Source: an uncultured Planctomycetales bacterium (GTDB lineage: Bacteria > Omnitrophota > Gorgyraeia > Gygaellales > Profunditerraquicolaceae). From it: a stretch of 64,000 nt of DNA. Of this stretch, positions 1-24,000 are shown in pieces (the stretch's first letter is position 1; each line of letters opens with the position of its first letter). The position numbers were made by a program, and so were the translations under genes. The notes beneath the pieces were generated by a model. It was not told the DNA's origin, made no database searches, and saw only the letters and a list, made by a program, of their open reading frames with translations. The stretch is from assembly GCA_964545575.1 (NCBI GenBank), contig CAZJFL010000001.1, positions 221,812 through 285,811 of the forward strand, in the 5' to 3' direction.

Positions 1-3000
1 GGCGGTCTGCCGGAGCATTGGCTGTCTCAAGGAAAAAGGTTTCACCCGTAGCCAGCGCCTGACAGGCAACCGGCAGCATCATATTTACCAACCTATCAAT
101 ATAATATTGCCTTCCCTGGTCTTTTGCCTTAGAATCCTTAAGATAGCCCTTGCTCCTCAAGAACTCCTCAATCATTTTCTTAAAACGCTGGTAGTCCATT
201 TTTTTCTTAATCTCCCTGATCTCATCACGTAGAGAGCTCAATTCCCCTGCCAGTTTATCCATCACTTCCTCCGGGACTTCTTCTCCCTGCTGGCTGCGCT
301 GGGTTGCCTCCTGATATTCATTCTCAGCCTTATCTACGGCAAGATTAAACTCGGCCAGTTGCTGCTTTAGATCTTCGGCTGACTCAGCCACGTCGAACCT
401 GCCCACATCATAATCCGCAAGCAGGCGATAGTGGAAAGGCAGGCGGCTACGCATACTGTCTACGCTCAGAGAGAAGTAGCGATGGCGTATTTCCGGGCGC
501 GCCTGCGGATTAATCTCATCATAGACATCGTAGTGGCGCTGCTCCAGGGCGAGCTTAAGAGCCGGCAGAATCTTGATAATATTTTCTGGCAAATCCTTCT
601 GGCGAGGCTCGTCATTAATCATGACTAATAAATCCTCGGCGATCTTCTCCCTATTCACTTCTTGTGCCTGGTCACGGGGCAGGCGCAAAACTTTAAAACC
701 GCATTTGACCTCATGGCCGTAAAGATGGTTCAAGAGGATAAAGATTGAATTAAAAGTCCTTTCCAGGCGCGGCAGGGTCAAGGACGCGGAATCAAAGCCT
801 AAGATGAACAGGATTATTGCCCCGACTAAGTCATTAGACGGCCAGTCCCCGCAGAAGCCGAGGGAAATCTTTTTCTTGGGGTCTTGGATCTTTTGATTAT
901 GCCGTTTGATCTCATTTGCCAGCGTAGCTAACATACGGATGAGCGAGATAGCCCGGTTATTCAAACTATCAAACCACGGCGCTCCCATCATCATCCTGTC
1001 CACGGCTTTGGTAAATTGTAATTGGTCGTTGCCTCCGACAGAACCAAACCCTATGCCTACTTCAATGAACGGCCGTATTTCAAAGGCCTGCGGCGTTTCA
1101 TTCATTATCCCTATTGTGATTTTATTTCTGTCTAAACCGACCTCATCAATGACCTGCAGAAGATCCACGAATTGTTGCGGGTCATACACTACCGGCGCAA
1201 AAATCCTGATCAGATAGCGATTTTTATCTACCAACGCCTTTATCGCCCGTAACTGCATCTTTAGGATCCGCTTATCATCAAGCATCATCCGGATGCCGCG
1301 GTATCCGGCCATGGGGTCGCGGTCTCTTACCACGCGGGAACCGGGCAGTTTCTCCAGCTCATCGCTCTTCCTGTCATCCAGGCGGCCAAAGAGGTACTTC
1401 TTGATCTGCTCGACAATTAAATATAAACAGAACTTATCTTGCTCTGCGGCGCGTTTATATAGCTGCTCGAATTTTTCCAGGTAATAGTGCGGGCCTTCCG
1501 GAACGGCTTCTGCGCCATAGGCGATGCCGGTCAATTGCGCCAAAAGCGTGCTTTGGTGTTCAAGGGCAGTCTGGCGGTAGGCTTTTTTATACATTTCTGC
1601 CAGCTGCATTGCTTCTTCCTGAAGCCGGGGATCGTTAATCTGCTGGGTCAATTTCATTAAGACCTCGGGCCAGACGCGGAATGTCTCGCTGATGCCTTCC
1701 AGGCCCCGGGAGAGTATCTGAATGTAGCGCTCTTCTGCCGATAACCAGCCCGAGGTAATCTTATCAAAAAACTCTATCAGCTTTCTGTCTTCCGATTTGT
1801 CCGGCTCATAGGGCTGATGCTCGGGATCATCCAGATAAGCCTTGTAGAATTCAAGGCCGGAGGTAATCTGCTCTTGGCTGCCGGCCTGCGCCGCCACAAT
1901 GCGCTTCTCTAATACGCGCAACTTCAGGTGCGCTAATTCGCTGTGCCGGGCAAGAGCCATACCCAGCCAAGCCCGCTCTTGCGCAGTCAGCCCTTCGTTA
2001 TCCATTTTCTTCAACATATTAAGATAGCGGTAATTATCGTAGCAGATAGCGCCTTCAGGGGCACAGCCAATCAGGCCGAGGAGCTGTTCAAAGCGCACCA
2101 GCCCGGAAACATAGGCATCAGGGCGCTTGCCTCCAAAGGGGCGCGCCTTTTGCGCGGTATCCGGTGCGTTGATATTTAAACCCAGCCTAAAACCTTCGGG
2201 CAATAAAGGCAATTCATCTACATTAAAATCATTACCCACGGGCTTGAGCTTATCCGAATGGTCTCCGGCAAAAATAATGCCTTTGCTGGCTACTACCGTG
2301 ACTTTACGGCCGTTATATAATTTGTTCAGGTCCGGAAGGCCGGTAATCACCACCCATCCGAACTCCGTCGCCATAATCGCGGTATGCGACTGCCTGCCGC
2401 CGACTAAAGTGACAATTGCCTTTGCCTGATGCATCGCCACATCCATATCCGGAGTCCCTTCTTCGGTAACCATAATTCTTCCCTTGACCTTATACCAATC
2501 CTGCGGCTTATTCTTAAAAGTCCAGATCACCCGTCCGGCTTCAGCGCCTTCACTGTGGAAGGTAGGGTCTTCATAAAGTACTAAACCTTGCTGACGCAAC
2601 ATCTCAACGTCCTTCTCGCTCATATCCTTGTATCTTAAGAAAATAACCGCGGGGTTCTTCTGGTTCCGGCTTGTCTCAGGCCTGACCTGCGTATAAACGA
2701 AGACATACTGATAGCGCGGATTTCCGGCATGGTCGCGGGCAATGCCGTCCGGTTGATTCGGGTCTTGGACATAGAGCGGCCTTGTCTCCCGGTCGCGCCT
2801 GATCACTAACCCACCTTCATAATCCTGATACATATCAAAGTATTCATACATCGTGCGGGCTACCAGGCCCATCTGGCCCAAAAGCTCCCAGTCAGTAGTT
2901 ACCGGCTTTCCTTTCAGCGCCTGGGGAAACTTTAAGGTAATCAGGCCGGCATCCTTCTCTTCACCATCTTGATTTTCCGTAGCGCCCAAGACATTAGGCA

Positions 3001-6000
3001 CCTGCCACGCCTGCCTGTCTTCGGAAATCTGATACTGCCTTAACTCTCCGTTAAAACGCACAAAGGCATTATCCGTGGTGGCTTTATTAGCCACAATGGC
3101 ATTAGCCGCACCCTCCACTAAACTCAAGTCTAATTCCGGCATACCGGTGTTGCGGTTGACGCCAAAGCCGACACAGCCGATATCAAAAATCCCCATCTGC
3201 TGGAACACCGAGCTCATTTTCACATTATCATCATAGATAGGAAACGGCGGGACTTGCTTCAGGCGGTAATCAATACTGCGGAAGTTAAATAATGAACGCT
3301 GATTCGCCAGCCACTCTTTGACAAATAGGTCTATTTCATCCTCTGTTACCGGCCCGATCACGGCATCCTGAAGCTTTAACTCTTCTACTAATGCCTTTAA
3401 TACCGCGTTCCAGGGTTCAACCGAAACACCCCATTTAGAGGCGTCGAGATAAAGAGAGATCTCCGCCGCTTTCATCGCCTCAACAATTATCTTTAATTTC
3501 CCCCAGGGGTCAGGCTGCTGAGCGAGTTTTGCTTCTGTGTCGGGGATATTAATCTTACGGTTGCCCAGAATCGCCAGCACCTTAAGGATCATCACAAAAA
3601 GCGAAGTATCCTGCCTGCCGGCAAAAGAAGCGGCTTCGCTATCTTCGCCCAGAGCAGAACTACGGATTGCCAGTATCAGGAGCCTCTCTGTAACCCCCAG
3701 GCGCTCCGCCATCTGCTTTAAACTTTCGCGCATCTCCTGAATTAAATCCGGGGCAATCTTGGCCTTACCCCATTCTAAATCTGCTTTGAACTTTTGGGAG
3801 CACTCGGTAAGCAAAATAAAGTACTGCTTGGTGTATTCCGGATCCTGTTTAGCTTCCTGGTCGCTGATTTGCTCTTTTGTTTTATTCTGCTGGTCGGCTA
3901 ATCTTTGTTTAGCCTGATCAATCAGGACGGGTAATTTTCTCTGGAGTTCTGCGGCAAGCGCTTTAAACTTCTCATCGTATCCGGGATTGGCAGCGATGAG
4001 CTTATCCGAAAAAGCCCTGCCGGCAGTAGCCAGGGCAGCCAAGGTTACGGCGCCCGGCGCATCCATCATCATCCCGGTATAGCAGGTCTTTCCGCCGAGT
4101 AAAGCAGCATCGCGGGCATCCACTTCATAGTCCCAGACAATGGTGCGGTCTTTAATTAAATCCTGATCCGCCAGATAATGGCCTTTCATCAGGAAGGTGG
4201 CTGTCCTGTCTTTATACTTATCAGCAGGGTCTTCTCCTTCGGGAGGGGCCTGATATTCATTGACTACGATCAGGCCGGGGTAATCACGGGCAATTGTCCT
4301 GAGCAACTTTTCTGCTGCTTCGGGCGTGAACGGCTCTCCTTCGGGAGTGCAGAGGGCAAAGAAACCGAACTCCCGGACTAATGCGTCTAAGGCTTGCCTG
4401 GCCTTAAATGAGCGGGTACGCTCCATCTGATCAATGAGCCATAATTTTTTCTCTGCGTCGGTGAGGAAGCGTTTTTCGCTGCGGATTTGCTGCCTGAGAT
4501 TAAAAAGTTTGATTGCATCTTCCAGGCGGTTCTGGTTGCCGGTGGCTTTACTTACCTGCGCGATACGGTTGACTACTACCTCTTGCTTCGCTATATCATC
4601 GGTTGAGGTATGCCTATCTCTTAAGTATAAGTCAGTTAAGATCCGAACAAAAAGCCCGGGCTTGACGCGCCTCATCCCTAAGCGCAACAGGTATTCCATA
4701 AAATCTAATTCGATGTAAGCAGTTTTTCTCCTTTTATCTACTGCGTAATGGCGTTCCCCTAATTTTCCGGAACGCACCAGGATGATCCGGGTATCTTTGA
4801 GAAGATCCGCCAAATATTGGAACTCTCCCTTACCTAAATAATGACGCAAGAAGTTGTAGGCTAAGGGTATGATCTTGGTGTAGCGCGGCAGGTCTAATCT
4901 GCCGACAGGAACATCTTCCATATTAGGGAAGCGGGTGGCATTGATAAGCAGGAGATCGCCGTTTCCTAAGACAAAGGCGCCGTTGTATTTAGTCAGCCAC
5001 AGCCTTCTTCTGCCCCTCTGGTATAAACCGACTTCATCGCGGGCAATCAGTTCGTCTAAAGTTGCCTTATCAAAGCGAAGCGTTAATGATTTTTTACGCC
5101 GCGGGTCAAAAGCCTGCACCGCTATTTTCCAGACGTTTTTGGCAGCGGGTTTCTGCTGGAGCGCTTTTGCTTGCCGTCCTTTTGCGGCAGCTAAACCTAG
5201 GGCCATCCCGTATTCCCTATCAAGCTGCACCTCAAAGATGGAGCACGCTCCGATAAAAGGAGTTAATTCATCGGGGTGAGCATAGAAATAATCTTCGCTT
5301 AATTTGCGGGCTGACTGACAGTCTAACTTTCGGAGGAGGGCGCCTTCGATATCATGGCGGATAATATCATCAATCATCCTTTGGTAGGCTTTACCTTCGG
5401 AAGAATTTTTATCCGGCGGAGCGCGGGCAGCCACACTTTCTAAGACCGCAACTTTTCCCAGCACGGTCTCGGTATCGGCAGCCCTTCCGCTGGCTGTCCT
5501 GGTTACCACCTCAACGTATTTAGCCTTGTCGCCAAAGTAACTCTTAAACTGATCCAGTTTATCTCTGGCCATCTCAACCGCTTCGCCGGTATAAGTAGAA
5601 GGATGCGGATGGCGGGCGCTGCCGGGCTTTCCAGCCTTGAACCAGCTACGGGCATACCCGCTTATCTTCTTTATTATTTGCTCAGGCAAAGTAGGGTTGA
5701 AGTTCGTCAGATACGCAGAATATACTATTGTGGCAATACCGATAATTAGGCCAATGATTTTAATCAAAGGATGGGGATGCGCTATTTTAGGCAGAAGTTT
5801 AGCGAAGAATATATTTTCCTCTAAGGCTGTAACTACTACGAAGAAGGCAGTAGCCAGGCCGATTCTTTGTTTGGCTGCGCCGATGGCTGCGCGCATAGCT
5901 AGAGCCGGGTCCGCATATCTGGCTTTAGATTCAGGAAGATAGGCCTTGGTCAGGGCCTTGGTGCCGTAAGGCCCGAGGCTGTAGAAGGCAATCGAGGCCA

Positions 6001-9000
6001 AAACTAGCAGCCCGACAACCCAGAAAGGCTTAATCATCGGGGCAAGAGAAAAATCAAATATAGCATTGCCTTTGGCAAGAAGCTTGCCCGGCAGATATAC
6101 AGTCAAAACTACTAACACCATGTGCCAGAAACACGACCCCACCACCACCATCAGCGGATCCGGCCTTGGTCCGCGTTCTAATTTAGCGGCGGTAGGGCTG
6201 GGATTTCCGCCGCGCTGCATCAGGTGGCCCATAAAGATGATGTAGAGGCCGTAGAATAAATCTACCCCTATCAAACAGGCATAGGCGATGGCAGTGGCTT
6301 TGTTAAGGTGAATTAAAGATGTCAGGTATTGCCACGCCAATTTATGCTGCATAGCAGCGAGGGTAGTGATAATACCGATTAAGGTCATGCTGTTTAAGGC
6401 CCACTGGTTGATATTGGTGGGCATCAGCTTAAGGTACTTGGCGAGCCTGCCGAAAGGCTTAGCCTCATCTAGAGCAAGCTTAGGCTTACCTGCTTCAACT
6501 GCCACCTTTTTACTGCCTCCTCTGATGATTATCTCCGTAATAATCATCGCCGGTATATTGACCGCGGCAATAAAGAGAGAAACTTCGGTGTTAGTAACGC
6601 CGGTAGTCTTTACGGCAAAGAAGGCTAAAGAAAGGGCGATCAGCGGCTGCAATGCCCCTACGATAAGCCATGCCAGCCAGTCGCGCTTCCACTCTGCGTT
6701 AAAAGAGTTATCTAATTTTAAAGCTTTATATATCACGTAAGGTACGAATCCTACCGCCAGCCACGCCCTTCTCGCCCCTTTATACTTAAACAAATCTTGC
6801 CTTAAATCTTTGAGGAAGGTGGGATTTTCTTTAGCTATGGCTTTGATAAGCTTGTAAAATAGGTAGCTGATCCCCGGCACTTCAGTCCAGGCGCTTCTCC
6901 AGAAGCAGATCCGCATAAAGTGATAAATAGTGACTAGCGGAGCGCCCATAGGCAGCTTCTTGGGGAGCAGGAAGACCTGGCATAAGCTGGAAGCGATGGT
7001 GAGGATAAAGAATACGGTCAGGGAATGTTTATCTTCGAAGATATTTTTGAGGAAGGACTTTATTGTTGTAACAATAGGTGGCGCGTTGGTCTGTTTGGAC
7101 CAGAAGAATAAGGCGATGAAAGCAAAAGCAGAAATCCCCAAGGCACGGCCTAAACCAAACGCAGGAACAGTAAAACCTCCCTGCTGCCCGGCAAAGAGCG
7201 GGGCGATGAAGGCGCTGGCGAGGAAGCCGATGATCGCGATACTGAAGAACTTTGGATAAGTATTGGTGCGCCTGGGATAAACTGGCGAAGGTCTAGCTTG
7301 CGGATTCTCTGTGATAACGTCACCTTGACTATGCATATCCTGATTTAATTTTACCCGATGATTCCTGCGGCCTAAGTATTTGCCTAAGGGGCCGGCAAAA
7401 ATTAAGCCTGCTATCGATAAAACGCCGAATACAATACTCAATGTAATAGGTAATGGCGAATTAGCTGACTTGGCAGTGGTTTCTGCACCTAATGGTACTC
7501 CTTGCGCCAGAGCAGGCAGAAGCAGCATGGCGGCGATGGCGATGCAGGCGAGGGTGTGGCGGTTTGTGCTAGTCGGCGCCTGGGCCACAGCAGAAGGCAC
7601 TTCTCTATCAATCGCATCCAATTTCAGTAAAACCCTGGCAATTCCCTCCCTGACCCCCGGCCTAGAACTATTTGTCTGAATATGTGCCAGGACCATACGA
7701 AAAGATGGACGATTAACGCACTGCCTATAAATAGTTACTAATAACTCTTCTGCCGTCGCTGCTACTTGGGGTTGGGAATCAGCTAAAGCACCGCCGGCTA
7801 TAGCCCCGATTGCGATTTTCATGTGTACAGGGGTAAAAGCGGCCATCTGCGGTATCAATGGCTTTAGCCTCTCGGCCGTGCGGAGGCTGCATTTCCCTAA
7901 TACACCCACGACTGCCTTAATTTCCCCGTCATTAACGAACTTGGCGCCTTGTACAATTAATCCTCCAGCTAAATCAGCGGTCTTTGCATCAAAGTCATTT
8001 TGTACATTTTGTAAAGCGTTAAGCAGAAGATTGATGGTATGGTGTGCCTCAGGCGGATTATTGTGCATGCGGCCTCTTAACTCTTTGCTCACTGCCTCCT
8101 GGTACGATAGATTACCCAGATAGCGTACTAACTCCGCCGAATTCATCGCGGATATATCGGATATCTTGGCTGAGCCTGATGGCGAAGAGGAACGGGGTTT
8201 TACTGGAGTAGGATGCAGCCTGGCCGGCGAGAGGCGGCGATAAAATATTCCCCCCACCATCAATCCTGCCAGCGGCAGCGAGCCGGCGGCTAGAGAGTGA
8301 TGGCCTAAGAGCCAGAACGCTGCCAGCGCCGCGGCGCCGAGGAGGGCTAAAATTATATACGGACCCGCGAAGATATCTTTGCGTTTTAAGGCATGGCGGC
8401 GGTAAATTGTTACAGCAAGGAAAACTACTCCGGCGACAACTGCGCCAATACTTATCCAGAATATTATATTGGCAATAGTTAAGGCAGTGCTGAACGGCCC
8501 ACCTAGACTGCCCCAGCCATCTGATGCTCTGTGTACGCCATCGATAATACCATTAGCCCCCTTGACAATATCGACTTTTTGAGTGAGGAATAAAACCGGC
8601 GCACCGGCAAAGAAGGCGGGGATAGCGCCTCTGATGCCATCCGGAAGTCTATCTATAATTAGCCTTAGTTGCTTTACTAGCCTAAAATATTCGGTCTTGT
8701 TTCTGGGTATTCCGTATTTTCCCGCGCCTTCTTCCTGACGGAATCCTAACTTGTATGCCTGCATGCTGCGTAAAATATCGTCTGCCTCTAAGATGCCTTT
8801 AATTGTATTTAGAGATAATACCTTGGCTCTCTTAAGAACAAAACTCCACATGCCCTCCTGGCCAAAATTGTCTGCTCCTAATAAGGTAACCGGCAAGACC
8901 TGCGTGGGTGACGGCGTCGCAGTAATCACCAGCATATCCCCTTCTTTCATTTCGCCTATCATCGTGGCATAGAAGTCAACGTGGGTGCCGTGCGTCCTTT

Positions 9001-12000
9001 CGGGATCCAAATATTTTATCACGTGTATGGCCGGCTGCTGCTTAGCCTCTAGCGGCGTCTTGCCTATGGCGCCGTCTACAAATTTGAAATTAATAACCTT
9101 GTTACCGGCCTTTAATCTGACCCTGATAGTTAAGGTTTTCTTATCCGCGCTTAAAGATTCTTTCAAGACTCTAAAACCCTGCTTTGACAGCTCATTCCTG
9201 AAACAATCGCTGCTGCTCTGAAGCGAGGCGGGGTCAGAAAAATCGTACTTCCTCTCCAGTAAGATAACCGTCTCTACTGACGGGCAGGACTTGACTAAAT
9301 CTGCGATTCCGGCAACATCAAAATATGCTCCCGGATAATAGATTACTTTCTTATCGCTTAAGGCATCCTTGATATATAAAGAACGTAATGCTTTAAAATA
9401 ACCCTGCGTAAACTTATAACCAGGCGTTAACCTGGCCTGCCAGCCATACTTATTGTGATCATCCAATTCTTCTTCTGCCTTCAAGGCGATCATCCAAGGG
9501 GCAAGGCCTAAATATTTCTTAATTAACCTCACTACCCCGCCTGCGCCAAGATCAGATTTCTTTTGTTCCGGCTTGATATTATATTCTGGCAGAATGCACA
9601 GCAGGGCAAAAAGCTCGTTCTCTGCATCTGTGCTTTCAGGATGAGCGATGACTCTGGCTTCATGGATAAGGGTAAGTAATAATTCAGTGCGGTTTGCATG
9701 ATTATTTAGAAGGGCCTCATCGAGATCAAGAATTTTGTTGCGGTAGGTTCCCCATATATAGGTAAACGGCCCGGCGCGGGTGACGATAGTATGGCGCATC
9801 TTTTCTAAGGCTGTGGTTACGCGATGGTCTTTACTGCCTACCTTAACCCTACGTATAGCTTCCTTGATAGCAGCATCAAGATAAGTTCTATCCGTAATCT
9901 TTTTGGCCTTGGCAATATCTTCTTGAATCTGCGCCTCTGTCGGCTGCATCCCGGGCTTTTTGCGGTGCGGGTCGGCTGAGGAAGCGGCGCTGGCAGCCTC
10001 CACCATTTCTTTAGCGAACTCATAATCATACAACGGCCTGCCGTCGCTGGTCCTTAAAGTCGCCCTGAGGATATCATAGAGATGCGGCCGCTGTTCTTCA
10101 AAGGGAGTATTCAGGCCGACGATTTGCTTACGCTTACGCTCCACTGCCTGAAGCCCAAGGTAGAAGGTTTCCAGGTCAAAGTTATCCAACAATATTTGTT
10201 CGGCTCTCTCCTGCGATATTCTAGATTGCACCAGCAATCCCTGCCCGGCCGCTGCGATATCGCGCTCAAACATCTCTTCCTTTGCCTTAAGCGCGGCTAA
10301 TAATTCAGTGTGGGCTTTTTCTGCGCGGTCTGGACGCGAACTCTGCTTCTCCAGTATATGGGCGACCTCAATTAAAGCAGTGTATTTGGCAACATAGTGT
10401 CCTTTTTCTTCTCTGATCCGCTCAAGCACGGTAAGCAGGTCCACCCCTTCGCCTTCTTCTACGCCGCCTAAATAAGAGATGATTGCCCGCTTTATCATAT
10501 GCCTGCCGATATCGCGGTGCGCCTGCCAATAAGGCTTACCCTGGGCGCGGCTTACTAAAAGGCCGAAGGTCAATTCCGTGGAGAGCACTGCCTGCATGCT
10601 TATAGGCTTGACCTGCATGATATGGATAAGGTGCTCCGGGTCAAGGCAGATATCCCGCGTCCCGTCTTCTTTTCTCTTGTTGCGGTCAATGCGGCGCTGC
10701 AGGTGATGCCTTAATACGCGCTTTAACATCCTGCTGGTAATATCGGTAATGCTGCCGATTTCAGGCACGCTTTTACCTTCAAACATCTCTCTGAAGTTCC
10801 AGTCAAATTCATCGACGCAGTTTAATACCCCTTTGCCGCCGTAACGCTTTGCCCGGTTATATAACTCTGTAAGCCCTTTTAAATCCTGCTCGTACTTGGC
10901 GGGGTTATCTTTTTGCTTGGCTACAACTGCCTCCTGGATAGCTGTTAAATCTATGCCCTTTTTAAATTTAAATATCTTTAAGTCGGCTTCGCGGGGGATA
11001 TCGCCCTTCTTTCTCTCCTGGGGAATTTCGTCAAAAAGGCCAAGATAATCGTCGGTTAATTGACATGCATAAACCTGGCCGTCAGTGCGGTATAAGGCCT
11101 CTTCAAAACCGGTGGAAGCGCCCGAGGGAGTGCCGGAGACCTCTTCTAAGAACATGCTGAATTTCTTACTATTCGGCACGCCCAAATAACCCCAAATCCC
11201 TAAAGTAGGATGGCCGGTATTTAAGGGTTCCTCCATCGCCAGGATATGGGTGCAGATTAAACTCTGCATTAATTTTTCGGTATCCGCTTCCTCCTCTTTA
11301 ATCCTGGCCTCTTCTTTAGCCAAGGCATCTGCTGCTAAGCCGGCTTTCCATTTAGCATAGCGCTCAAACATCCAGCGCTTGGCCTGGTCTATCTCTTTTA
11401 CCAGCTCGGTATCTTCGTAAAGCACCCCGCGCTCTGAATTTCCTCCTCCCCCGGTCTTTTGCCCGCGCGCCCTGAAGGCCATGGATAAATGCGGCTCGCG
11501 GCCATGGAAGGGGGCCTTGGAGCGGTGGGAGATGATTACCCCGCCGCCTTTACCGTAGACTACGGTTATGGCCACATCCGTTTCCAGAGTAGTTCCGACC
11601 TGGTTGTATTTAATCAGGGCGTCGTCGATTAAGCCCATTTCAAAGGCCCATTCAATTACTGAATCTTTGGTGGTAATCAGGTCATCACCGATGCGCCTAA
11701 AGGGTATCGGTACCGGCAGGTCTATCTCAATCTTATCTTTGCCCGGGATAATCACTTTTCCGTCGGGAGTCCTTTCAAAGGCAACTACCCTGCTCTGCAA
11801 TTGCCAGCCTGAGGTATCATCCTGGGCTAAGCCGTCCTCAACCGAGAGGATCGGAACGTTCTTCTCGATGATCGCCCTGGCAATAGCCTTTAAGATATCC
11901 ACAGCATCGTATAAATCAGGGTTCTTTGCATCTAGAAAAGCCAGGTATTTCATCGCATCCTCAGCTAATCCTTTCCGCTTACGCGCCTCAAGCACCCATT

Positions 12001-15000
12001 CGCTGCTGGCGATGTCAAAGGCTATTCCTACATCTTCTCCCGGCTCCAAATATTCATCTAAACTTCCTGGCTTGTGCACCGTGCTGATTGCCAAAGTCCC
12101 CAGGCGCCAGTTGCGTTCGTCAGCAAACTTATCCCCCTCTGCCCTCTCGACGATACCGGTAACCCCTCCTTCCGGGCCTTTGCCGCCTAAAGAGCAACCA
12201 TCGGTGCTGGCTAAGAGCCCTTTATATCTATTCTGAATCGCTGTCCTTAAGAGCCGGTCTATTTCCCCGGGATTCTCGTAGAGGCGCGCGCAAAGGATAA
12301 GCATCATCATCTCCTGGGAGCTAAGGTTGGTGCGGAACTTAGGCCAGACGTGCTTAGCACCCATGCCGAAATTTAAAAAATGATGGGCAGCAGCTACTTT
12401 TTCGCCATTCATTAAGACCGTCTCCCAGAGCCGGAAAAACTCCATGTCTAAGTTAAGCCTTAAGATCTTGTATTTAAAATCCCCCTGCGCTACGGGCTTT
12501 GCCTGTTTGGTCTTGCTGTCCCTTTCTCGTTTTGCCTCCAGTTTTCCCGGGTCGGCAAAGATAAAATCCAGGAAGCTCATCTCGCAAAAACTGAAGAACC
12601 ATCTGCCGATATAAGTGAAGAAGATCATCCCTGTTAACTGGCTTAATGCCATAAATAAGGGCCCCCCTATTGCGCCGATAATACTTAACCTGCGGCTGGC
12701 CAGGCGGCCTTCGGCCTCCTGGTCTAACTGCGGCTCTGCCTCGGGTTCAAATTTAACGCCGGTCCTTTTAATCCCCGGGAAGAGCCCGAAGAAGCCTAAA
12801 TAAATCATTTCCAGGTAGAATAAAATCCTTCTTGGCCTAAGCTGTTGTTTTAAGGAAGCAATGAAGGTGAGTTTTTCCTTATTCGTCGCCTCGGCAACAA
12901 TCAGCTCGCGTTCGGCAGTCAAGGTCTTAAAGGAAAACCATTTAAGCTTCATTATCAGGCTAAACTTGAGGTCTTGATAAAAGCGATAAGGCCTCCAGAA
13001 GAAATATTTAAGATTTTTCTTTTTATGCTCCTTGAATTCGTTATCCCGGTAAAAGTTAAAATCTGTCTGCGCCTTCTTTAAATCATTCTCCATCACCTCT
13101 TTGGATTTTAACGCCCCGACCTTAATCGCCTTAAGCACATGGCCTAAGCCTTCGTGCCAGCCCACAGCCGTAGGAAAAGCCACCCCCCAGATCATAGAGC
13201 CATAAAGCGGCTGGATAGAGACGAACATAAATTTTATAATATCCGCCGGATGATTATGCCCCGGGGGCATGCTTAAGGGGGAAAAGATAAAGATTGTCTC
13301 GATACCGGAATCAAAGATATGATTACCTTTGACCCAGTTTGCCTCTAATTTCGCTCTTGCGCCTTCATAAAGCTTCCTTAAGCTCGCCAGCCAGGGCAGT
13401 TGCTGGGCGAGGTCGCTTTCTTGGGCATCCGGGGTCCCTTCTTTCTTCTCCGGACGGCGGCCTACCTCGCCGCGATAGGGCTCAAGCTCATAAATACCCG
13501 AGGCCTCCCTTAAAACCTGGGCCAAGGATTTAGCAAATGGCTGCGCTTGGAGCTTCTGCACTAAAAACATACCAGCCTTAAACAGGTCCTGATAGGCAAC
13601 ATAATTAAAAAGATAAGACCAGAGCTCTAAAGCACAGGTCTTGGCTTTATCTTGCTGATATTTCTCTAAAGCAAGCTGGATACCGGCATTATCCGGCATC
13701 AGCCTAAAGATCTCCTCGCCTACGTATTTAGCAATCGCCTTGGCTAAAACAAGGTTGGCCGTACCCCGGATGCGCTGCCAGAGTTCTTCGCCGTCTAAAT
13801 GCGCAGCCAGCCTGTTTACGGCGCCGGAGGTAACTAAGGAGATCCCTGCGCCAAAACCTAATTTAAGCTGCAGGGCCTGGATCTGCTCAAACTCATCAGA
13901 GCTAGTGCTCAGCTTTCCGCGGCGCATAGATTCGTCCCGGTCTAAGCTAAGCAATTCTTTTTCTATGTCGATCAGGCTGCCGAGTTCCAGTAAGCGCCTG
14001 CCCTGGCCGGTTTCTGCGTCGATAAAGGCAGGCCGGATATAGCGATTAAAATATTCCAGGGCCTTCTGGCAGCCCATTCCGTTAGAGCGCTCAAAACGCA
14101 CGGTAAAAAGCCTCTCCAGCTCAGGGTCCTCCTGGGCCTTAATCAAGGCCAGGGCCTCTTCCCTGTCTTTAAAGAGGCTGGCGTTAAAAGTAAAGTTGCG
14201 GGTAGTCTGGTTAAATCTAAAGAGCGTTCTATATTTAGGGTGCTCTTTGCACCAGAGCTCGTCGAAATACTTCTGCGGCAGATCGTCCATTTCAATGATA
14301 GAATCAGTCAAGACCATGGCGTCCCCGGTTGAATGGATATCCGGGATAGATAAGGCGGCTTCAAATTGCAAGAGATCAAACCATTTCTGGCTGCCGTAGA
14401 TGCCGGCAAGGACATTCAATTTAAAGGTGGGGTCTCCGGAAGCAGTGGGGTATTCGCGCGGGATTAAGGCAGTGATGCGTAAGCGCGAAGCCAAAGTTTG
14501 CGCCAATTGCTCCAGTTCTTCAGGAGGCATCTTTTTAGATTCTTTCTCCAGGCGCTTGACGATCGCCCTTTTAGTCATTTTCACCAATCTTTCGTAGCGG
14601 ATTAAACTAACCATCCCGCTTACCCCGCCTACTGCCAAAACGTTCGGCTCCAGGCCAAGGGTCAGCTGGGTCTCTAAATCGTCGTCTGTACAAAGGGCGC
14701 AGCCGCCAATGGTAACATTCAAGCCTAAGAGCCGGGCAGTTAAAAAGGCATTGATCATCTCAGTCAAGCTCCCGCAACGGCCAGGGACAAGCACCACGGT
14801 ATTGGAATTTCCTTCCTCGCGCTTAAGCCGCGCTGCCAGGTCTTCGATAGAATCATCCCGGCAATAGATAGTGGTATCGTCGGCAATAAAGAGGGTCTGG
14901 CCTAATCCCTTTTCGATTACAGCACCGCTGGCATCCCGTTCTCCATAGTATAATTTATGGCTAGTGGCAGGGTCCTTGCGGTAGCAGGGGTTCTTATACA

Positions 15001-18000
15001 TAATAATCGGCATCCCGTCTTCATTGACCAGCTTCCTTAAGAGGCCCAGGTAATGCGGCGGCGTCAGCGAAGACTCTAAGCTGACCTCATAGGCATAGAA
15101 CATATAGCGGATATCCCCGGCGTTATTGGGCATCGCCTTATAGGCCTCGACCATCTCATCGGCATTGATCTCAACAATAAAGACTGCGTCCTTGCCTGCG
15201 ACTAATTTACGGCCTTTAAACTTGGAGTTATTCACTGCCTGCACCAGGTACCTTAAGATGCGCTGCTCCGGAGCAACCTCGCCTTTACCCTTAGGCACGC
15301 TTAAGACAAATCCGCCGCGCGGGCCCTCGCCATAAACAATACAGTCTTTTTCCGCAGTGCTCTTTACGGCATCCTGGAATTTTTCCGCGATTTCAAACCA
15401 GACCGGGCCCTTATCAGGCTCTTTGGCCAATTCGCCGACGAACTGCACCCAGATATTCCAGGTGACCGTGCTTTCCGGGAAGGAATCCTTGATCTGCCGG
15501 CCGCCTTCTACAAATAACTTTGCCTGGGTAGCATCTAAAACTACCCTCTTGATACCGTCTGCCTGGGGGCTATCAAAGAGGGTCTGGCCGTGGTCCTGAG
15601 CCATAATCTCTCTTTTTACCTCTGGGGCATGCTTTGCCCAGTCGCTTACGGTCATTGCCCCGCCTTTATGCGTTCTCTCTTTGCAGCGTTGTCTTGCGCC
15701 GGGGTCAGCGGTCCACCAGTCTAATCCAGCTGCCCAGAAGTTACCGAAGAAATAGCGGAAAAATCTGGTCAGCCATAACGACTGCGGCACGACAAAAGGC
15801 AGGAAGGATAACTGCAGGTTCTGATAGCTTAAAACCGAAGGCAATAAAATTATCGACATCACCAGCGAGAAGATGGCAAATTTCCCGCTGGCTATTGGCC
15901 CGGCAGCTAAGAACTGGTCAGAGTCTCCTTTGGTGGCCACAAAATATGCCGGCGGCTTTATCTTAGAGAAGAACCCTCTCTCCTTGGGCTTGTAGGCGAC
16001 AATCCCCGGGAAGAGCCCTAAAGGAGCGAAGGTCAAAATCTCAGCATATAACAGCAGGTTGATAAAGAAGAATGTTATCTTATCAAAAGCTAACTTAAAG
16101 AATGACTGTTTCTTCTTATCTGCCTGCATCCTGGCGCGCACTGCCTCCAGGGTCTTTAAGAATAGCTGGTGATGCAGGAACCTCTGGATATCTGCAGCAA
16201 GCAGGCTAAAGAAGGTTTTTAAATCAAACATGAGATTTTTATACCAGGGACGGGTTTTTCTCTGCTGGCCGTAATCCTGTCTTTGCTTGGCAATTTTCTG
16301 GCGCAGGTCTTTCTGGCTATTCTCTAATGTCGCGATCAGGTTCTCTTTGCTGACTAAAGTCCTTTCCATGATCGCGGCTTTCAGGTGGCCGGCGCCTTCG
16401 TGCCAGCCGATAGTATGGAAGTATTGGGCCAGGGTAATCAAGAGCGTTTCCGGTGCGCCTATAAGATAAGCCCAAATAATATAGAAATAGGTAGGATAGA
16501 CTGATTCTGGCGCCATGGTAAAGAGGGCGGCGGTATTGATAAAATAGCCCGGCACCAAGAGATGATTGACTAAGACCATCAGGCGGTCAAGAAAACCGGC
16601 GGCCAAGCCCGGCGCAGCATTCCCGCTTAATTCCCGGGCAGCGCGTTGAGTAGCTCTTTTATCGGAGAACACCTTTACCGCTATGCGTAACGAATAGAAT
16701 ATGGCCAGGTTAAGTAAAAGCGGCCCGAATGCCCGCGGGCCAACCACAGCCAAGAGGGATAAATTTAAGATAGTAACACCTAAGCCTAAGGCAAACTCTG
16801 TCAGATAAGCAGGCTGCAGGAGTTTTTTCAATTCAACGCTCAGGCCCTGGCGCGGGTAGTGTTTTTCTAAGAAGACAAAAGTTTTATTGATCGCGGTATT
16901 AAGTAGCCGCCCGGCTAAAGGTAATCCTTTAACAAAAAGCTGCTTTAGAGCGATAAACCCGAGAATGACCAAGAAGATGGCCTTACCTTTAAAGGCCAGC
17001 GCTATGGCAAGCGGCAAAAGTGTAGGAAGCGGGATGACGTTGTGTATGGCTTTAAGTATAGAGCGAAGGTTTGATTTGATGCGGCCGGATAAGGGGCCTT
17101 GCGGCGGGCCTTGCGAGTAGCCGCGGGATTTAAAGAGGAGTTTATAGAGGCCGTAGAGAATAGCGAAGCCGCAGGCAGCTACGGATAAAATCGGCTGACC
17201 CACAAGATATCCGGCAATGGCCAGGGCTAAAGAAGTGAGTAAAACCGGCGAATTTAAGATGACATTGCCGGCTCCCGATACACCACCCTTTCCTTGCTGT
17301 TGCATTAAACTTTCTAATTCTTTCAGGTATGGCTGCAATACGTCTAGAAATCTATGAACATCAATACCTCTATTAACCTCAATTATATTGTGGTCTAAGA
17401 AAAGATGGATATCCATTCTCGTCATCTTGTATAGTATTTTATTATTCTTTTTATCGAAGAGACAAATAAACACAGAAGGCATGCTTTTATCACAGATAGG
17501 GCATGTGCTTAAGCCTCTATCCTGAATGAGATAGCATTCAGGATCTGCCATGATCACTAACGGGCATATTTCTAGTGATTTATTATTCCTTATAGCCAAA
17601 AGGTAAGCAGCAACTTTACGGACTAATATGTCGGCAGGAGGAGCGGGAGGGGCAGGAAGAGCCAAGCTTTCTCTAATCGCCCTTATCGCCAAAATAGTCT
17701 GTTCTGGCGCTAAGACTGTTTGTAAAAGATGCTTATATAATAAATCGGCTTCATATCCTGTGATAGCATCGGCCAATGAATATAAAGCGGCAGCGAGATC
17801 GCTTGCATCTATAGGAGGAAGACGCTGAATACAGTCTTTATAATTCTCCAGACTAATCTCTAAGTAGTTACCAGCGGGATCACGCCGAGAAGCCAAAATA
17901 TATATAATCTTACCACTTGAGAGGAGCACATTTTGTAATAAATGTTTCCTCTCTGCCAAGAATTCCTCGACTTTTCCCAGATCCCAGCTGGTGTACTCGG

Positions 18001-21000: not shown

Positions 21001-24000
21001 ATGCTGCCGCCACAAATTCATAAAGCTCATCGTCCTTGGCAAATTTTTTACCTCTGATTACATTTAAGTTGGCGATAAGTGACTCCAGCTCCTCTGAAAG
21101 CTTATAGCGCAACGCAAACGGGTTCCGCGCCATAAAAGGACGGTCTTCGTTGGCCCTGAACCTCCCCATCACCCAAGACGGATTATCATCTTCATGCTTA
21201 GGGACAACCCGATTCATCTGCTGAAGCGCCTGCGCAGTAAATCCATCCTTATCTATACGCGAAAGTATTTCTCGGATTTTACCTTCCTCTACTTGCATGT
21301 TTTCGGCCACTGCCTTTATATGCGCCTGCGCAGACGGCTGCCGCTTACGCCGTGCGTGTGCACTCTCCCGCCTTATGCGTAATCCTAAAACCGTGCCTAC
21401 TGTGGCCAGCGCGCCGAGGCCAAGAATCAATTCCTGCGTCGCGCTTAAATCTATGCCGCAATATAAAACCAGCGTCACCAACCCCAAGCCCAACAGCCCC
21501 CTGCCGCTGCCGGGCAGCCGGCTCCGGATTTCGGCTAGCACATCTTTTGCTTCAGACGCCTCGCCCTCGCCGCGGGAATTGCCGTTGTCGCGGGAGATGG
21601 GATAAGGCTTATTTCCGTTATCGTTAGACACATTATTCTTTATTAGGTCATGTAAATACCAAAATAAATTAAAAGCGGCATCCGCAAAGAAAAGATACGC
21701 CACCAGAGGCATACTTTTAATTAAAGTGGCTACGCCTAAGGCGGCTGGCAATAGAATTGTGGCTAATCTCATTAAAGTTATCGAAAGCGCTTTCTCTTCA
21801 GCGAAAATAAAAATTGGCAATGCTCCGGGCCCTTTGGGTGGCCTTCGATTATTAAGAAGCCATAGGATAATAGTAATAGCTATGCTTAAGCCTGATAGCG
21901 AACTCATAAATAAATAATTTTTATCCGTAATTCCTATAAGATAACGCGCTACAATAGGCGGCAAGGCTATTCCCGACAGAATAATTAATGGAATTATAAA
22001 GGCGTACTTATGCCTGCTTATAAAGTTCTTGAGCCTTGAGGCAAGAGAAGGCGTAAGCGCTGCCTTCTCCTGCTTAGTGAGCGAGATTTGGCTTTGCGAT
22101 GAGAAGATTTCTGGCTTTCTCTCGGATGAACTCGGCTGCCTCGTTGCTGACTTCAACCCAGTTGCCAGCGCTCGTCCTGCCGCAGACTTTGCCGTCGGGC
22201 AGAATGAAGAAGTCATACTCATAGGACCAGTGGTCGTATTTGGCAGACGCCCATAACCCGCCTTTAATAGGAGTGACTCTACAAACCTCAAGATTCTGGA
22301 AGTTACACATCGGACACCTCCTTTTGTTTGTCTTGCGGCTAATAATTCTCTATCACTCTTAAGCAGCGCCTGATGGTCGGCGAAACTGTGGATATAGAAT
22401 ACTGCCGTGGCTATCAGCGGCAGAAAAGCCGACGCTTTATCTATACTGCCCAATATGTAGGCTGCCGCAAGAGATACTATCGACATGATAAAACTCACCA
22501 GCGGCCCGGCGCGTAAAGATTTCCTTGCCAGTAAATGTCCGAATTCATGGATGCCCCAGCCAACCAGTGAAATAATCAAGGAGGCCACAACGGAAAATGC
22601 CAGCCAGACCTGCCAGAGAGCGGCATATTTATTTCCCGGGCCAAGGCAGATAAAGAGCGTGCCGATTACCGCCCCCGCCAGCCACCCGCCCAAGAGGTAT
22701 TTCCAGTTCAGCTGCGGCTTAAGCGCCTCGTCCTCGCCGCGGTAGGCGGTATATTTATCCGCTACAGCAGAAAGGTATTCTGCAACATGCGCACCTACCG
22801 GATACCGCCCGCTTACTTCTATGGGCCATTTTACGGTCAAAAGGAACGCACAATCTTTAGTAGGACTGTAATTGCGTACGGTATAATAATTCCCCTGCCC
22901 CTTAAAGATAATCAAATCTGCCTGCTGCCAAGCGCGGAAAAATTCCGGAGAAATACGCGCTAAATCAGTGCCTAAGGCAATAGTGCCGGTGCCAATAATT
23001 TTTAAGCCAGCAAAATCCCGGCCAAAAATTTTCCGGATGCCTTCATCTGCCAACAGCCCTGCCAAATCTTCTCTTGTCGCATCATTAGAAGCGGGAAGCG
23101 ATTTCCCTGCAAAAGTTACCTTATGGCCAAGATTAAGCAGCTCGTTTATCAACGCTAAATCAAAAACGTCTTCGCCTACGTTATCGACTACGTACACAAT
23201 ATTCATCTGCTCGCGGAGCAATCTTTCTTTTAATTTTTCCGTATCATTCTTTTTCCAAAAATCAGCCGCGGCAAAATCACTTTCTATAATTTTCTCTACT
23301 AAAGAGAAGCCATCGGAAAGGAGCGCTTCGCGTATACGCGGCTCTGATAAATCTAAAATATTTCCGATTACGCACAAACGTAATGCCGCTTCCAAACGAT
23401 CTGGCGCCTTATTAATCAAAGTTAGCGCCTTGCCTAAAAGTGAGAATGCGGCAGTACGGATACCTTGTTTATACTGCCAGTCGGGATCAGCGAATTCCAC
23501 GGCAATGCGTATAATCTCTAAATCTACCTCTAAGACTTCATAGCTGGTCCAATCTTTTATCCGCGGCATTGCTAAGAATGTTTTGATGGCAGAGGCAAAT
23601 TTCTCCCTTACCTTTTCGTCAGGAACCGCCCTTTCCAAAAGCCTAAGATCGGTTTCACGACGCCGGTTGATTAAGTTAGTGGCAGAATCGCTACCTGCGA
23701 GCATATCTCTTATAAATGTACTGCCGTAATGATATTCGCTTGTCGGATGAGCTATCGCATTTAGCACATAGAGCTTGCTGCGGTCAAAGTATCTAATGAC
23801 ATTTTCTACGAACTCTTCAGGGCTAATTTTTCCCGCTAAAAAGCTCCTTCTCAATAATAGCGCGCTATCTTCAAAATCTTCCCGCAACAGGGCATTAACA
23901 TCTACCGGTGTCAGTAATAAAATGGCTTTGGATACCACCCAGCGCAAAGGATCAAGGTTTAACGCTGCTATATCAATACCATATTGGGCGCAAATACTAG

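Follow-up and report, generated by a model that had tools for sequence, protein, structure and literature searches.

Tandem M50-like membrane modules with predicted circularly permuted enolase domains in a giant multi-enzyme gene of an Omnitrophota bacterium

INTRODUCTION

The 64,000-nucleotide stretch of DNA analysed here in full (positions 221,812 to 285,811 of contig CAZJFL010000001.1, assembly GCA_964545575.1; hereafter, the window) comes from an uncultured bacterium deposited under Planctomycetales and placed by the Genome Taxonomy Database (GTDB) in the Omnitrophota, and it raises the question of what kind of protein would carry, about 3.2 kb apart, two membrane segments that share the motifs GWHEGxGH and GLFPGI. 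The original prediction was that of an internal tandem duplication of a polytopic membrane module, with a soluble domain of another kind between the copies and a metal or active site of an uncharacterised family at the His-Glu-Gly-x-Gly-His motif. Our answer, which we consider probable, is that the two segments belong to ancient paralogous copies of one composite unit, an M50-derived membrane domain joined to a circularly permuted enolase, that both copies are part of one giant multi-enzyme membrane protein, and that the second copy is a membrane-tethered enolase. Our confidence in the structural identification is high, and our confidence in the function is moderate to low.

RESULTS

Two adjacent units of about 1,090 residues

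The window is an internal fragment of a giant gene with many enzyme domains and hydrophobic helices: a six-frame stop scan found the minus-strand frame that starts at nt 64000 to be free of stops over 21,333 codons, and the stop scan, Pfam matches and hydropathy delineate a single open reading frame (ORF; nt 2 to 64000, minus strand) that is open at both window ends. All features given below lie on this strand. Within it, two units, collinear with each other and each about 1,090 residues long, stand head to tail and directly adjacent, namely, unit 1 (u1; aa 15796-16880, nt 13361-16615), with an M50-like membrane module and a degenerate permuted enolase, and unit 2 (u2; aa 16881-~17975, nt 10076-13360), with an M50-like module and an apparently intact permuted enolase. 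In each, a membrane module of ~290-320 residues is followed by a soluble part of ~770-810 residues. By blastp, aa 15833-16790 aligns with aa 16928-17871 at 22% identity over 1,034-1,041 columns (E 3e-15 against the whole giant protein), and the membrane and soluble parts are each significant when taken alone (E 1.3e-8 and 5e-8, respectively). The tandem homology that had been proposed is therefore real, with a collinear similarity of E 5e-17 in the pairwise comparison, and it extends, over ~1,035 columns, far beyond the short motifs. Its dimensions had been misjudged, since the repeat is not a ~500-residue polytopic module confined to nt 12450-17400: each unit includes a soluble part, copy 2 reaches to about nt 10076, and the soluble domain thought to separate the copies belongs to copy 1. 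Six extra hydrophobic helices upstream of u1, detected by the hydropathy scan (aa 15580-15775, nt 16676-17263), lie outside the repeat; they have no counterpart before u2, and the blast alignment begins only at aa 15833.

Both motif pairs are present in the segments where they had been noticed. The first pair consists of GWHEGAGH at aa 15866-15872 (with HEGAGH at nt 16385-16402) and GWHEGLGH at aa 16948-16954 (with HEGLGH at nt 13139-13156), and the second of GLFPGI at aa 15995-16000 and again at aa 17072-17077; neither motif occurs elsewhere in the 21,333 residues. The reported 18-mer shared by the two copies, GGGCTCTTCCCGGGGATT, exists as well and constitutes the GLFPGI codons on the minus strand (nt 16001-16018 and 12770-12787), 5-11 nt away from where it had been placed; none of 100 shuffles gave two matches, so that chance is not expected to produce it. 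It also contains a CCCGGG palindrome. The units have 41% nucleotide identity. Their two longest stretches without a mismatch are this 18-mer and a 15-mer that encodes GWHEG (nt 16391-16405 and 13145-13159), and 95 of the 232 residues that are identical between u1 and u2 use the same codon. Codon preference or a small gene-conversion tract may explain the identical runs at the motifs.

No third copy of the module was found in the window with the hidden Markov model (HMM) of the family described below. We considered HEFGH at aa 13818 as such a copy and rejected it, its match to the module HMM reaching an E value of only ~0.02. The membrane helix that bears this HExxH sequence (aa 13792-13853, nt 22442-22627; GWGIHEFGHLLARKS) may be a further M50-like element that has diverged more strongly, or it may match by chance.

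A permuted enolase follows each membrane module

Sequence comparison identifies the soluble part as an enolase in circular permutation, its TIM barrel coming before the N-terminal-type domain. In u2, the barrel (aa ~17169-17575, nt 11276-12496) carries the motifs SQEMMM, GPEGG, AFDIASSE, SVEDG, IGDDLITT, IKYNQVGTTLE, SHRSKAP, and QKTGGG; it matches Pfam Enolase_C with 63.2 bits (E 3e-17, cutoff 21.5) and enolases of the PDB at E 6e-13. The capping domain (aa ~17576-17975, nt 10076-11275) comes after it and includes TPSGASTG (nt 11108-11131) and RYGGKGV (nt 10826-10846), its match to Enolase_N being weak (aa 17622-17643). The order was also apparent with phmmer, in which enolase residues 243-419 were matched before residues 39-57 and 59-87 (PSGASTG, RYxGKGV). 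A canonical enolase has its capping domain before the barrel, whereas u2 and all relatives scanned have Enolase_C and then Enolase_N.

The soluble part of u1 (aa 16118-16880, nt 13361-15649) was interpreted from a multiple alignment with u2 and family members, in which the first half of the barrel was mapped to canonical enolase through an alignment to 1iyx_A (QEFM and DEGG equivalences). The comparison follows the established yeast enolase numbering (E168, E211, D246, E295, D320, K345, H373/R374/S375, K396, and the S39 loop). At the position of E168, u2 has SQEMMM and u1 has WNIW in place of QEFM; at E211, u2 has GPEGG and u1 has GPRGG for GxEGG; at D246, AFDIASSE of u2 corresponds to VEINADE of u1, with Glu for Asp; and at E295, SVEDG corresponds to MYKNP (for SxEDx). 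The Asp of D320 is kept (IGDDL in u2, ADD in u1). K345 falls in IKYNQVGT of u2 and in VPGRCGS of u1, which is part of VPGRCGSLTE (nt 14759-14785) in the place of KxNQIGTxxE; H373-S375 is SHRS in u2 and GGCAL in u1 (GGCALCT for SHRSxxx); K396 lies in QKTGGG of u2, for which u1 has AVGG (for KxGG); and the S39 loop, TPSGASTG in u2, is the partly degenerate SIPDIHSTG in u1. Hence, every enolase catalytic and Mg-binding residue tested is retained in u2, which looks like a competent enzyme, while u1 retains only the Asp-Asp pair equivalent to D320 and, with most catalytic motifs lost, is a predicted pseudoenzyme.

The u1 soluble domain has no Pfam match, and its link to enolase runs through u2 and the family only; its sole match in the PDB is an enolase at E 0.74, with VVLVPGRCGSLTEMINAF aligned to ILIKLNQIGTLTETIKAI. 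The equivalence of PGRCGSLTE with KxNQIGTxxE recurs in the alignment of u1 with u2, and because of it we rejected two other readings of this stretch, the Rossmann-type domain of the original prediction and a LOG/SLOG "PGGxGTxxE" motif. Known folds account for both the supposed Rossmann domain and the supposed new metal motif.

In relation to phosphopyruvate hydratase (PF00113 plus PF03952; TIGR01060), u2 and its relatives thus keep the barrel, the capping-domain motifs and the catalytic residues, and they differ in the circularly permuted order, the fusion to a membrane domain, the change of SHRSGETED to SHRSKSPN(D/E), insertions in the capping domain and, in u1, the loss of catalytic residues. 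Neither a circularly permuted nor a membrane-anchored enolase turned up in full-text literature searching.

The membrane modules resemble site-2 proteases

The membrane module of u1 (aa 15796-16117, nt 15650-16615) is site-2-protease-like and runs, in order, through a transmembrane (TM) helix TM0 with VNHLLVP, a TM helix that ends in GWHEGAGH, a helical insertion, the GLFPGI loop, AAGPIAS (nt 15887-15907), and LDWWTADPG (nt 15698-15724). That of u2 (aa 16881-17168, nt 12497-13360), delimited by alignments, the family HMM and hydropathy, has GNHIFDS, GWHEGLGH, the helical insertion (nt 12848-13066), GLFPGI, AEGRLAS (nt 12695-12715), and LDFIFADPG (nt 12545-12571). The family-only HMM matches the u2 module at E 1.8e-35. 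GLFPGI corresponds to IPYGxFxGV of the family and to IPLGGY of Escherichia coli RseP.

There is good evidence, from sequence comparison, that the module shares descent with M50 peptidases. Among 64 family modules, 44 match PF02163 (Peptidase_M50) at E <= 0.1, the best at 1.5e-7, and some relatives already carry a precomputed PF02163 annotation. When the family was compared by hhalign with RseP (query sequence identical to PDB 7w6x_A), an E value of 0.0068 was obtained, and the aligned pairs were HExGH with HEFGH, IPWGKFPG with IPLGGY, and AAGPRAS with AAGPVAN. The membrane module was judged similar in fold to solved site-2 protease (S2P) cores. Profile searches of PDB sequences gave no match with alignment A2 and, with alignment A4, enolases only, an outcome that the barrel columns of the full-length P0001 row explain and that is uninformative for M50. 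Over 84 sequences, the invariant residues are H, E, G, and H of the motif, G, A, and S of AAGPxxS, and R, D, D, and G of LDxxxADxG, and near-invariant ones are G..F of PxGxFPG and N plus H in the preceding helix. The two invariant Asp residues, D299 and D304, stand in LD(F/W)xxADPG of the last hydrophobic helix, which differs from the NxxPxxxLDG of S2P/M50 proteins and lies outside the hhalign alignment.

Compared with the known S2P/M50 group (E. coli RseP, M. jannaschii S2P, and B. subtilis SpoIVFB; PF02163), the module has the same succession of a membrane helix that closes with an HExxH-type motif, a Pro/Gly loop (PxGG-like), and an AGPxx(N/S) helix, followed by a later helix with a conserved Asp that may correspond to their third metal ligand, and like them it has a soluble domain appended to the core. 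It differs in that the window copies read HExxxH with a helical hairpin of ~72 residues adjoining the motif and fall below Pfam thresholds, and in that the appended domain is an enolase and not a PDZ or CBS domain.

The motif itself departs from the M50 pattern in the window only. M50 proteases have HExxH within a TM helix, whereas both window copies read HEGxGH (HExxxH), and both hhalign and MAFFT place a one-residue (Gly) insertion relative to HExGH in u1 and u2 alone, the canonical HExGH being present in 127 of the 127 relatives that cover this region. GWHEGxGH is, on these alignments, a lineage-specific variant of HExGH. What had been proposed about it thus survives in part: the His-Glu...His motif sits in a membrane helix and is most likely a metal or active site in derived form, and the fusion family to which it belongs is undescribed; the motif, on the other hand, is an insertion variant of one that the relatives keep.

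A second peculiarity is the hairpin insertion of ~70 residues (KKQS[FL]F..LAFD), which is common to u1, u2, and a metagenomic relative (P0001), is absent from typical family members, and splits the match of the family HMM into two segments. In u1 it is a charged stretch of ~71 residues (nt 16076-16288) that separates the HExxxH helix from the GLFPGI loop. An AlphaFold2 (AF2) model of u1 built with the 84-sequence alignment (predicted local distance difference test score [pLDDT] 76.5; predicted template-modelling score 0.70) shows it as two helices, 90-121 and 124-164, with a pLDDT of ~80-89; a single-sequence AF2 model of the module was too poor for use (pLDDT 52.9).

We also considered dipeptidyl-peptidase III (MEROPS M49), in which the HExxGH spacing equals that of HEGAGH and HEGLGH in the window, and rejected homology to it: only the motif spacing matches, the M49 enzymes being soluble and of unrelated fold, and no M49 family was among the Pfam matches. 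In M49, the expanded HExxGH motif can still bind a catalytic zinc.

A widespread fusion family and an old duplication

When a profile built from both window modules was used to search 1.84 billion representative proteins, only eight matches were obtained, and in all eight the module is directly followed by a permuted enolase. With these matches as the query, a scan of GTDB species genomes returned 100 relatives, of which 80 loci were retained for analysis; their taxa include WOR-3, Terriglobia/Acidobacteriota, Cloacimonadota, Planctomycetota, Verrucomicrobiota, Omnitrophota, Elusimicrobia, Stahlbacteria, WOR-1, and others. An ORF with the HExGH motif (...IAIHEMGHYL... or, in a few, ...GWHERGHY...) is present in 78 of the 80 loci, and in these NQ[IV]G, SHRS, and G[TAS]S[AT]G follow at fixed spacing wherever the contig extends. 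Complete ORFs are mostly ~820-950 aa long, and the relatives scanned with Pfam match Enolase_C and then, significantly, Enolase_N. An Omnitrophota chromosome (L043) has the GWHERGH subtype, as do two metagenome-assembled genomes (MAGs), one unclassified (L040) and one of Eisenbacteria (L055). In a set of 5.8 billion proteins, at least 539 clusters were recovered under the source name "enolase" only; this search succeeded with a 64-sequence alignment only, and the same search with the u1 membrane region or with the 9-sequence alignment A2 gave no match. The window units belong with this group, the standalone members of which have ~850 aa: u2 matches family members by blastp at E 1e-34 to 5e-115, the module HMM matches, the permuted enolase is collinear, and the invariant H, E, G, H ... 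G, A, S, R, D, D, G are in place. The module-enolase fusion family is widespread and undescribed.

In several relatives (P0003, P0004, P0006, and P0007, as well as L043, L007, L070, and L074) the unit is embedded in proteins of 1.1-2.5 kaa with kinase-like, HD, and other domains, which suggests a gradient of size from standalone proteins of 850 aa up to giant genes.

The two copies did not arise recently: a neighbour-joining (NJ) tree of 23 units (200 bootstraps) joined u1 with P0001 in 185 of 200 replicates and u2 with P0008, a contig of 11 kb that one ORF occupies over its whole length, in 199 of 200, and paired u1 with u2 in 1 of 200 only. Both u1 and u2 sit on very long branches, and the clade of u1, u2, P0001, and P0008 is weakly supported (29/200). 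Because each copy has its own orthologue elsewhere, the two appear to be ancient paralogues, each conserved in other organisms. The common hairpin insertion points to a duplication within the lineage of giant genes rather than independent capture. P0001, a metagenomic fragment the enolase motifs of which are also degenerate, has HERGH; if the tree is correct, the HEG insertion would therefore have arisen twice or been copied between the copies. A second example of the tandem arrangement was not found, either in a scan of genome contigs with the window protein or in scans of metagenome contigs anchored on aa 18141-18463.

Two side observations concern these closest relatives. P0001 (L081, contig Ga0117906_1042868) has a single in-frame stop at ~1782-1787, after which the same frame continues with capping-domain sequence, ITNITAHEKATNSGKP; the stop may be a sequencing error, a mark of a pseudogene, or a site of read-through. 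The block at aa 18141-18463 (nt 8612-9580), downstream of u2, is 79% identical to residues 1301-1623 of P0008 (L082), the rest being ~25-32% identical; this unusually conserved block has no Pfam match and contains KKVIYYPGAYFDVAGI, which is also found in P0006.

Association with pyruvate phosphate dikinase

Pyruvate phosphate dikinase (PPDK) domains (aa 20079-21080, nt 761-3766; Pfam PPDK_N, PEP-utilizers, and PEP-utilizers_C) lie ~2,100 residues downstream of u2 in the same polypeptide, and the same order is seen in P0008, which likewise continues to PPDK. Of 80 loci of standalone relatives, 28 (from Terriglobia, Elusimicrobia, a deltaproteobacterial MAG, and WOR-1) have within their 10-kb flanks a gene of ~890 aa resembling PPDK_N/PEP-utilizer proteins, its matches to PPDK_N and the swivel domain being weak (e.g., L042, 12403-15072, minus strand); it is mostly immediately downstream and convergent, which echoes the order of enolase and PPDK in the window. 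The occurrence downstream in the window and in P0008 and as a neighbouring gene in these loci points to a local couple of enolase and dikinase linked by phosphoenolpyruvate (PEP), and the PPDK domains are the likely consumer or producer of PEP, the enolase product.

The giant protein around the two units

Along the giant ORF, Pfam recognises a ROK kinase, NUDIX, CofD, HAD/PMM, PGM/PMM I-IV, two Ribul_P_3_epim, GatZ, peptidase M54, PGI, PRK, RmlD, cupin-GPI, TPR, ARMT1, Fic, Enolase_C, and lastly PPDK. The hydropathy scan counted 71 hydrophobic 19-mers, and clusters of hydrophobic helices separate the enzyme domains. The original prediction had missed that one minus-strand ORF takes up the entire window; the list of complete ORFs, from which those running off the ends are left out, has almost none above 150 aa. 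An alternative genetic code was rejected as the reason, this scarcity being explained by the one ORF that runs off both window ends. On the plus strand, a few ORFs of 184-222 aa (e.g., nt 11568-12236) are antisense to it and presumably not genes.

In its length of more than 21,000 codons, its many TM helices, and its tiled PGM/PMM, ROK, GPI, NUDIX, and HAD domains together with PPDK, the window resembles the giant multi-enzyme proteins of Omnitrophota ("Archaeovorins," West-Roberts et al. 2023; class 1 "multi-enzyme metabolic clusters," Nielsen & Lui 2026), and like them it has an ORF of more than 10,000 aa in which metabolic Pfam domains are tiled and TM helices are numerous; it differs in that no SecA_DEAD, C39, S8, TSP3, or dockerin domain is found within the 64 kb. 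Such "multi-enzyme metabolic cluster" proteins have been described as anchored in the inner membrane with cytoplasmic domains (10.64898/2026.06.07.730766; 10.1101/2023.11.21.568195). Neither of these two papers mentions enolase or M50-like domains in giant proteins. A megablast search of the window against phages gave no match.

Elsewhere in the giant protein, a second ancient internal repeat relates aa 8223-8754 (nt 37739-39334) to aa 10408-11016 (nt 30953-32779), with 23% identity over 633 columns (E 9e-19), and covers the ribulose-phosphate 3-epimerase and the part that follows it, and a short repeat relates aa 5658-5750 to aa 6979-7070. An M54 (archaemetzincin-like) domain with HEVGHLIGG lies between GatZ and PGI (aa 9287-9381, in the region of nt 36017) and could be a further protease built into the giant protein.

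DISCUSSION

We propose that each unit has a four-helix membrane domain of M50 descent, which would comprise the His-Glu-x-x-His helix, the PxGxFPG loop, the AAGPxxS helix, and the LDxxxADPG helix, and which would serve at least as a membrane anchor. With the His, the Glu, the second His, and the two Asp invariant across phyla, the domain probably still binds metal, and the predicted metal site, modified in the window, could serve as a protease, in self-processing of the polyprotein (for example, by cutting TM helices of the giant protein itself), or in regulation. The u2 unit would be a membrane-tethered enolase that interconverts 2-phosphoglycerate (2-PG) and PEP and feeds the PPDK further along the polypeptide, with u1 as a putative structural or regulatory partner. 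Given four helices and the Lys/Arg-rich linker (ADPGKYKxFxxRE...) that follows the last of them, we infer that the enolase is on the cytoplasmic face.

Several observations weigh against parts of this proposal: (i) the window modules have no Pfam M50 match (that of u1 none at E <= 0.1), and the gathering score of PF02163 (27.2 bits) is not reached by four relatives searched as whole proteins, which gave 18-19 bits or no match; (ii) the hhalign probability for RseP is only ~6%, and a Foldseek comparison of the AF2 model of u1 with the PDB returned nothing below E = 1; (iii) HExxxH departs from the i/i+4 geometry of M50 proteases, so that non-canonical zinc binding or inactivity may apply; (iv) the membrane helices of u1 and u2 are less hydrophobic, those of u2 being below the family average; (v) the linker is the only ground for the cytoplasmic placement; and (vi) since four relatives, at 190-241 bits, miss the 300-bit equivalog cutoff of TIGR01060, the substrate may be other than 2-phosphoglycerate.

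The possible activity of the membrane domain separates two other interpretations. If both M50-like modules were active processing proteases, they would cut TM helices of the giant polyprotein or of partners and thereby release or activate enzyme domains, and the enolase would be cargo or a metabolite-sensing regulator, analogous to the CBS or PDZ domains that other site-2 proteases carry. The M50 ancestry of the module is in keeping with this, as are the dozens of hydrophobic helices that could be substrates, the preservation of the modified HEGxGH in both copies despite 22% overall identity, and the invariance of the His, Glu, His, and two Asp in 84 sequences from many phyla, which exceeds the needs of a passive anchor; West-Roberts et al. 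have moreover proposed that giant Omnitrophota proteins are cleaved post-translationally by embedded proteases (10.1101/2023.11.21.568195). We nevertheless regard this as improbable, since the same fusion stands alone at ~850 residues, with no polyprotein to process, since the window copies have HExxxH and not HExxH, and since the fully conserved catalytic set of the u2 enolase favours catalysis over sensing alone. At the opposite extreme, both modules could be catalytically dead and do nothing but tether enzymes, with the motif residues serving helix packing. A spacing of HExxH that is broken by one inserted residue in both window copies, and only there, would suit such degeneration, and so would the reduced hydrophobicity of the u1 and u2 helices, their very long branches, and the decay of the u1 enolase, a sign of relaxed constraint in the lineage; yet both copies have kept H, E, G, H, D, and D after deep divergence, the two longest identical nucleotide runs between them are at the motif regions, and the example of M49 indicates that an expanded HExxGH can bind catalytic zinc, so that we think dead anchors still more improbable than active processing proteases.

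The history of the two units could also be explained without any duplication, by independent fusion of two different family paralogues into the giant gene. Although the NJ tree, in which u1 and u2 are not sisters, each has an orthologue of its own, and the joint clade is weak, would allow for it, long-branch effects limit what the tree can tell, the units are directly adjacent and collinear, and u1, u2, and P0001 have at the same site an insertion of ~70 residues with recognisable sequence that typical members lack. Separate fusions seem very improbable to us, and we retain an ancient duplication of an M50-derived domain with a permuted enolase.

A more far-reaching interpretation, which we rate as unlikely though worth stating, is that of an undescribed family in many phyla in which an intramembrane metalloprotease of the S2P type is covalently coupled to a catalytically complete permuted enolase and genomically linked to a PPDK-like enzyme, with HEGxGH as a novel, functional form of the M50 zinc site. 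If this were true, the coupling could mean either regulated intramembrane proteolysis that is gated by the glycolytic intermediates 2-PG and PEP or, in giant genes, that the polyprotein contains intramembrane proteases which cleave its own TM helices.

To conclude, enolase is among the most conserved enzymes known, and the family described here combines its permutation with membrane anchoring and a site-2-protease-like domain. Units of enzyme plus anchor that are able to duplicate and decay offer a testable handle on the organisation of giant membrane proteins. The family bears on whether such proteins are self-processed and raises the question of a membrane-run lower glycolysis, from enolase to PPDK, in these bacteria.

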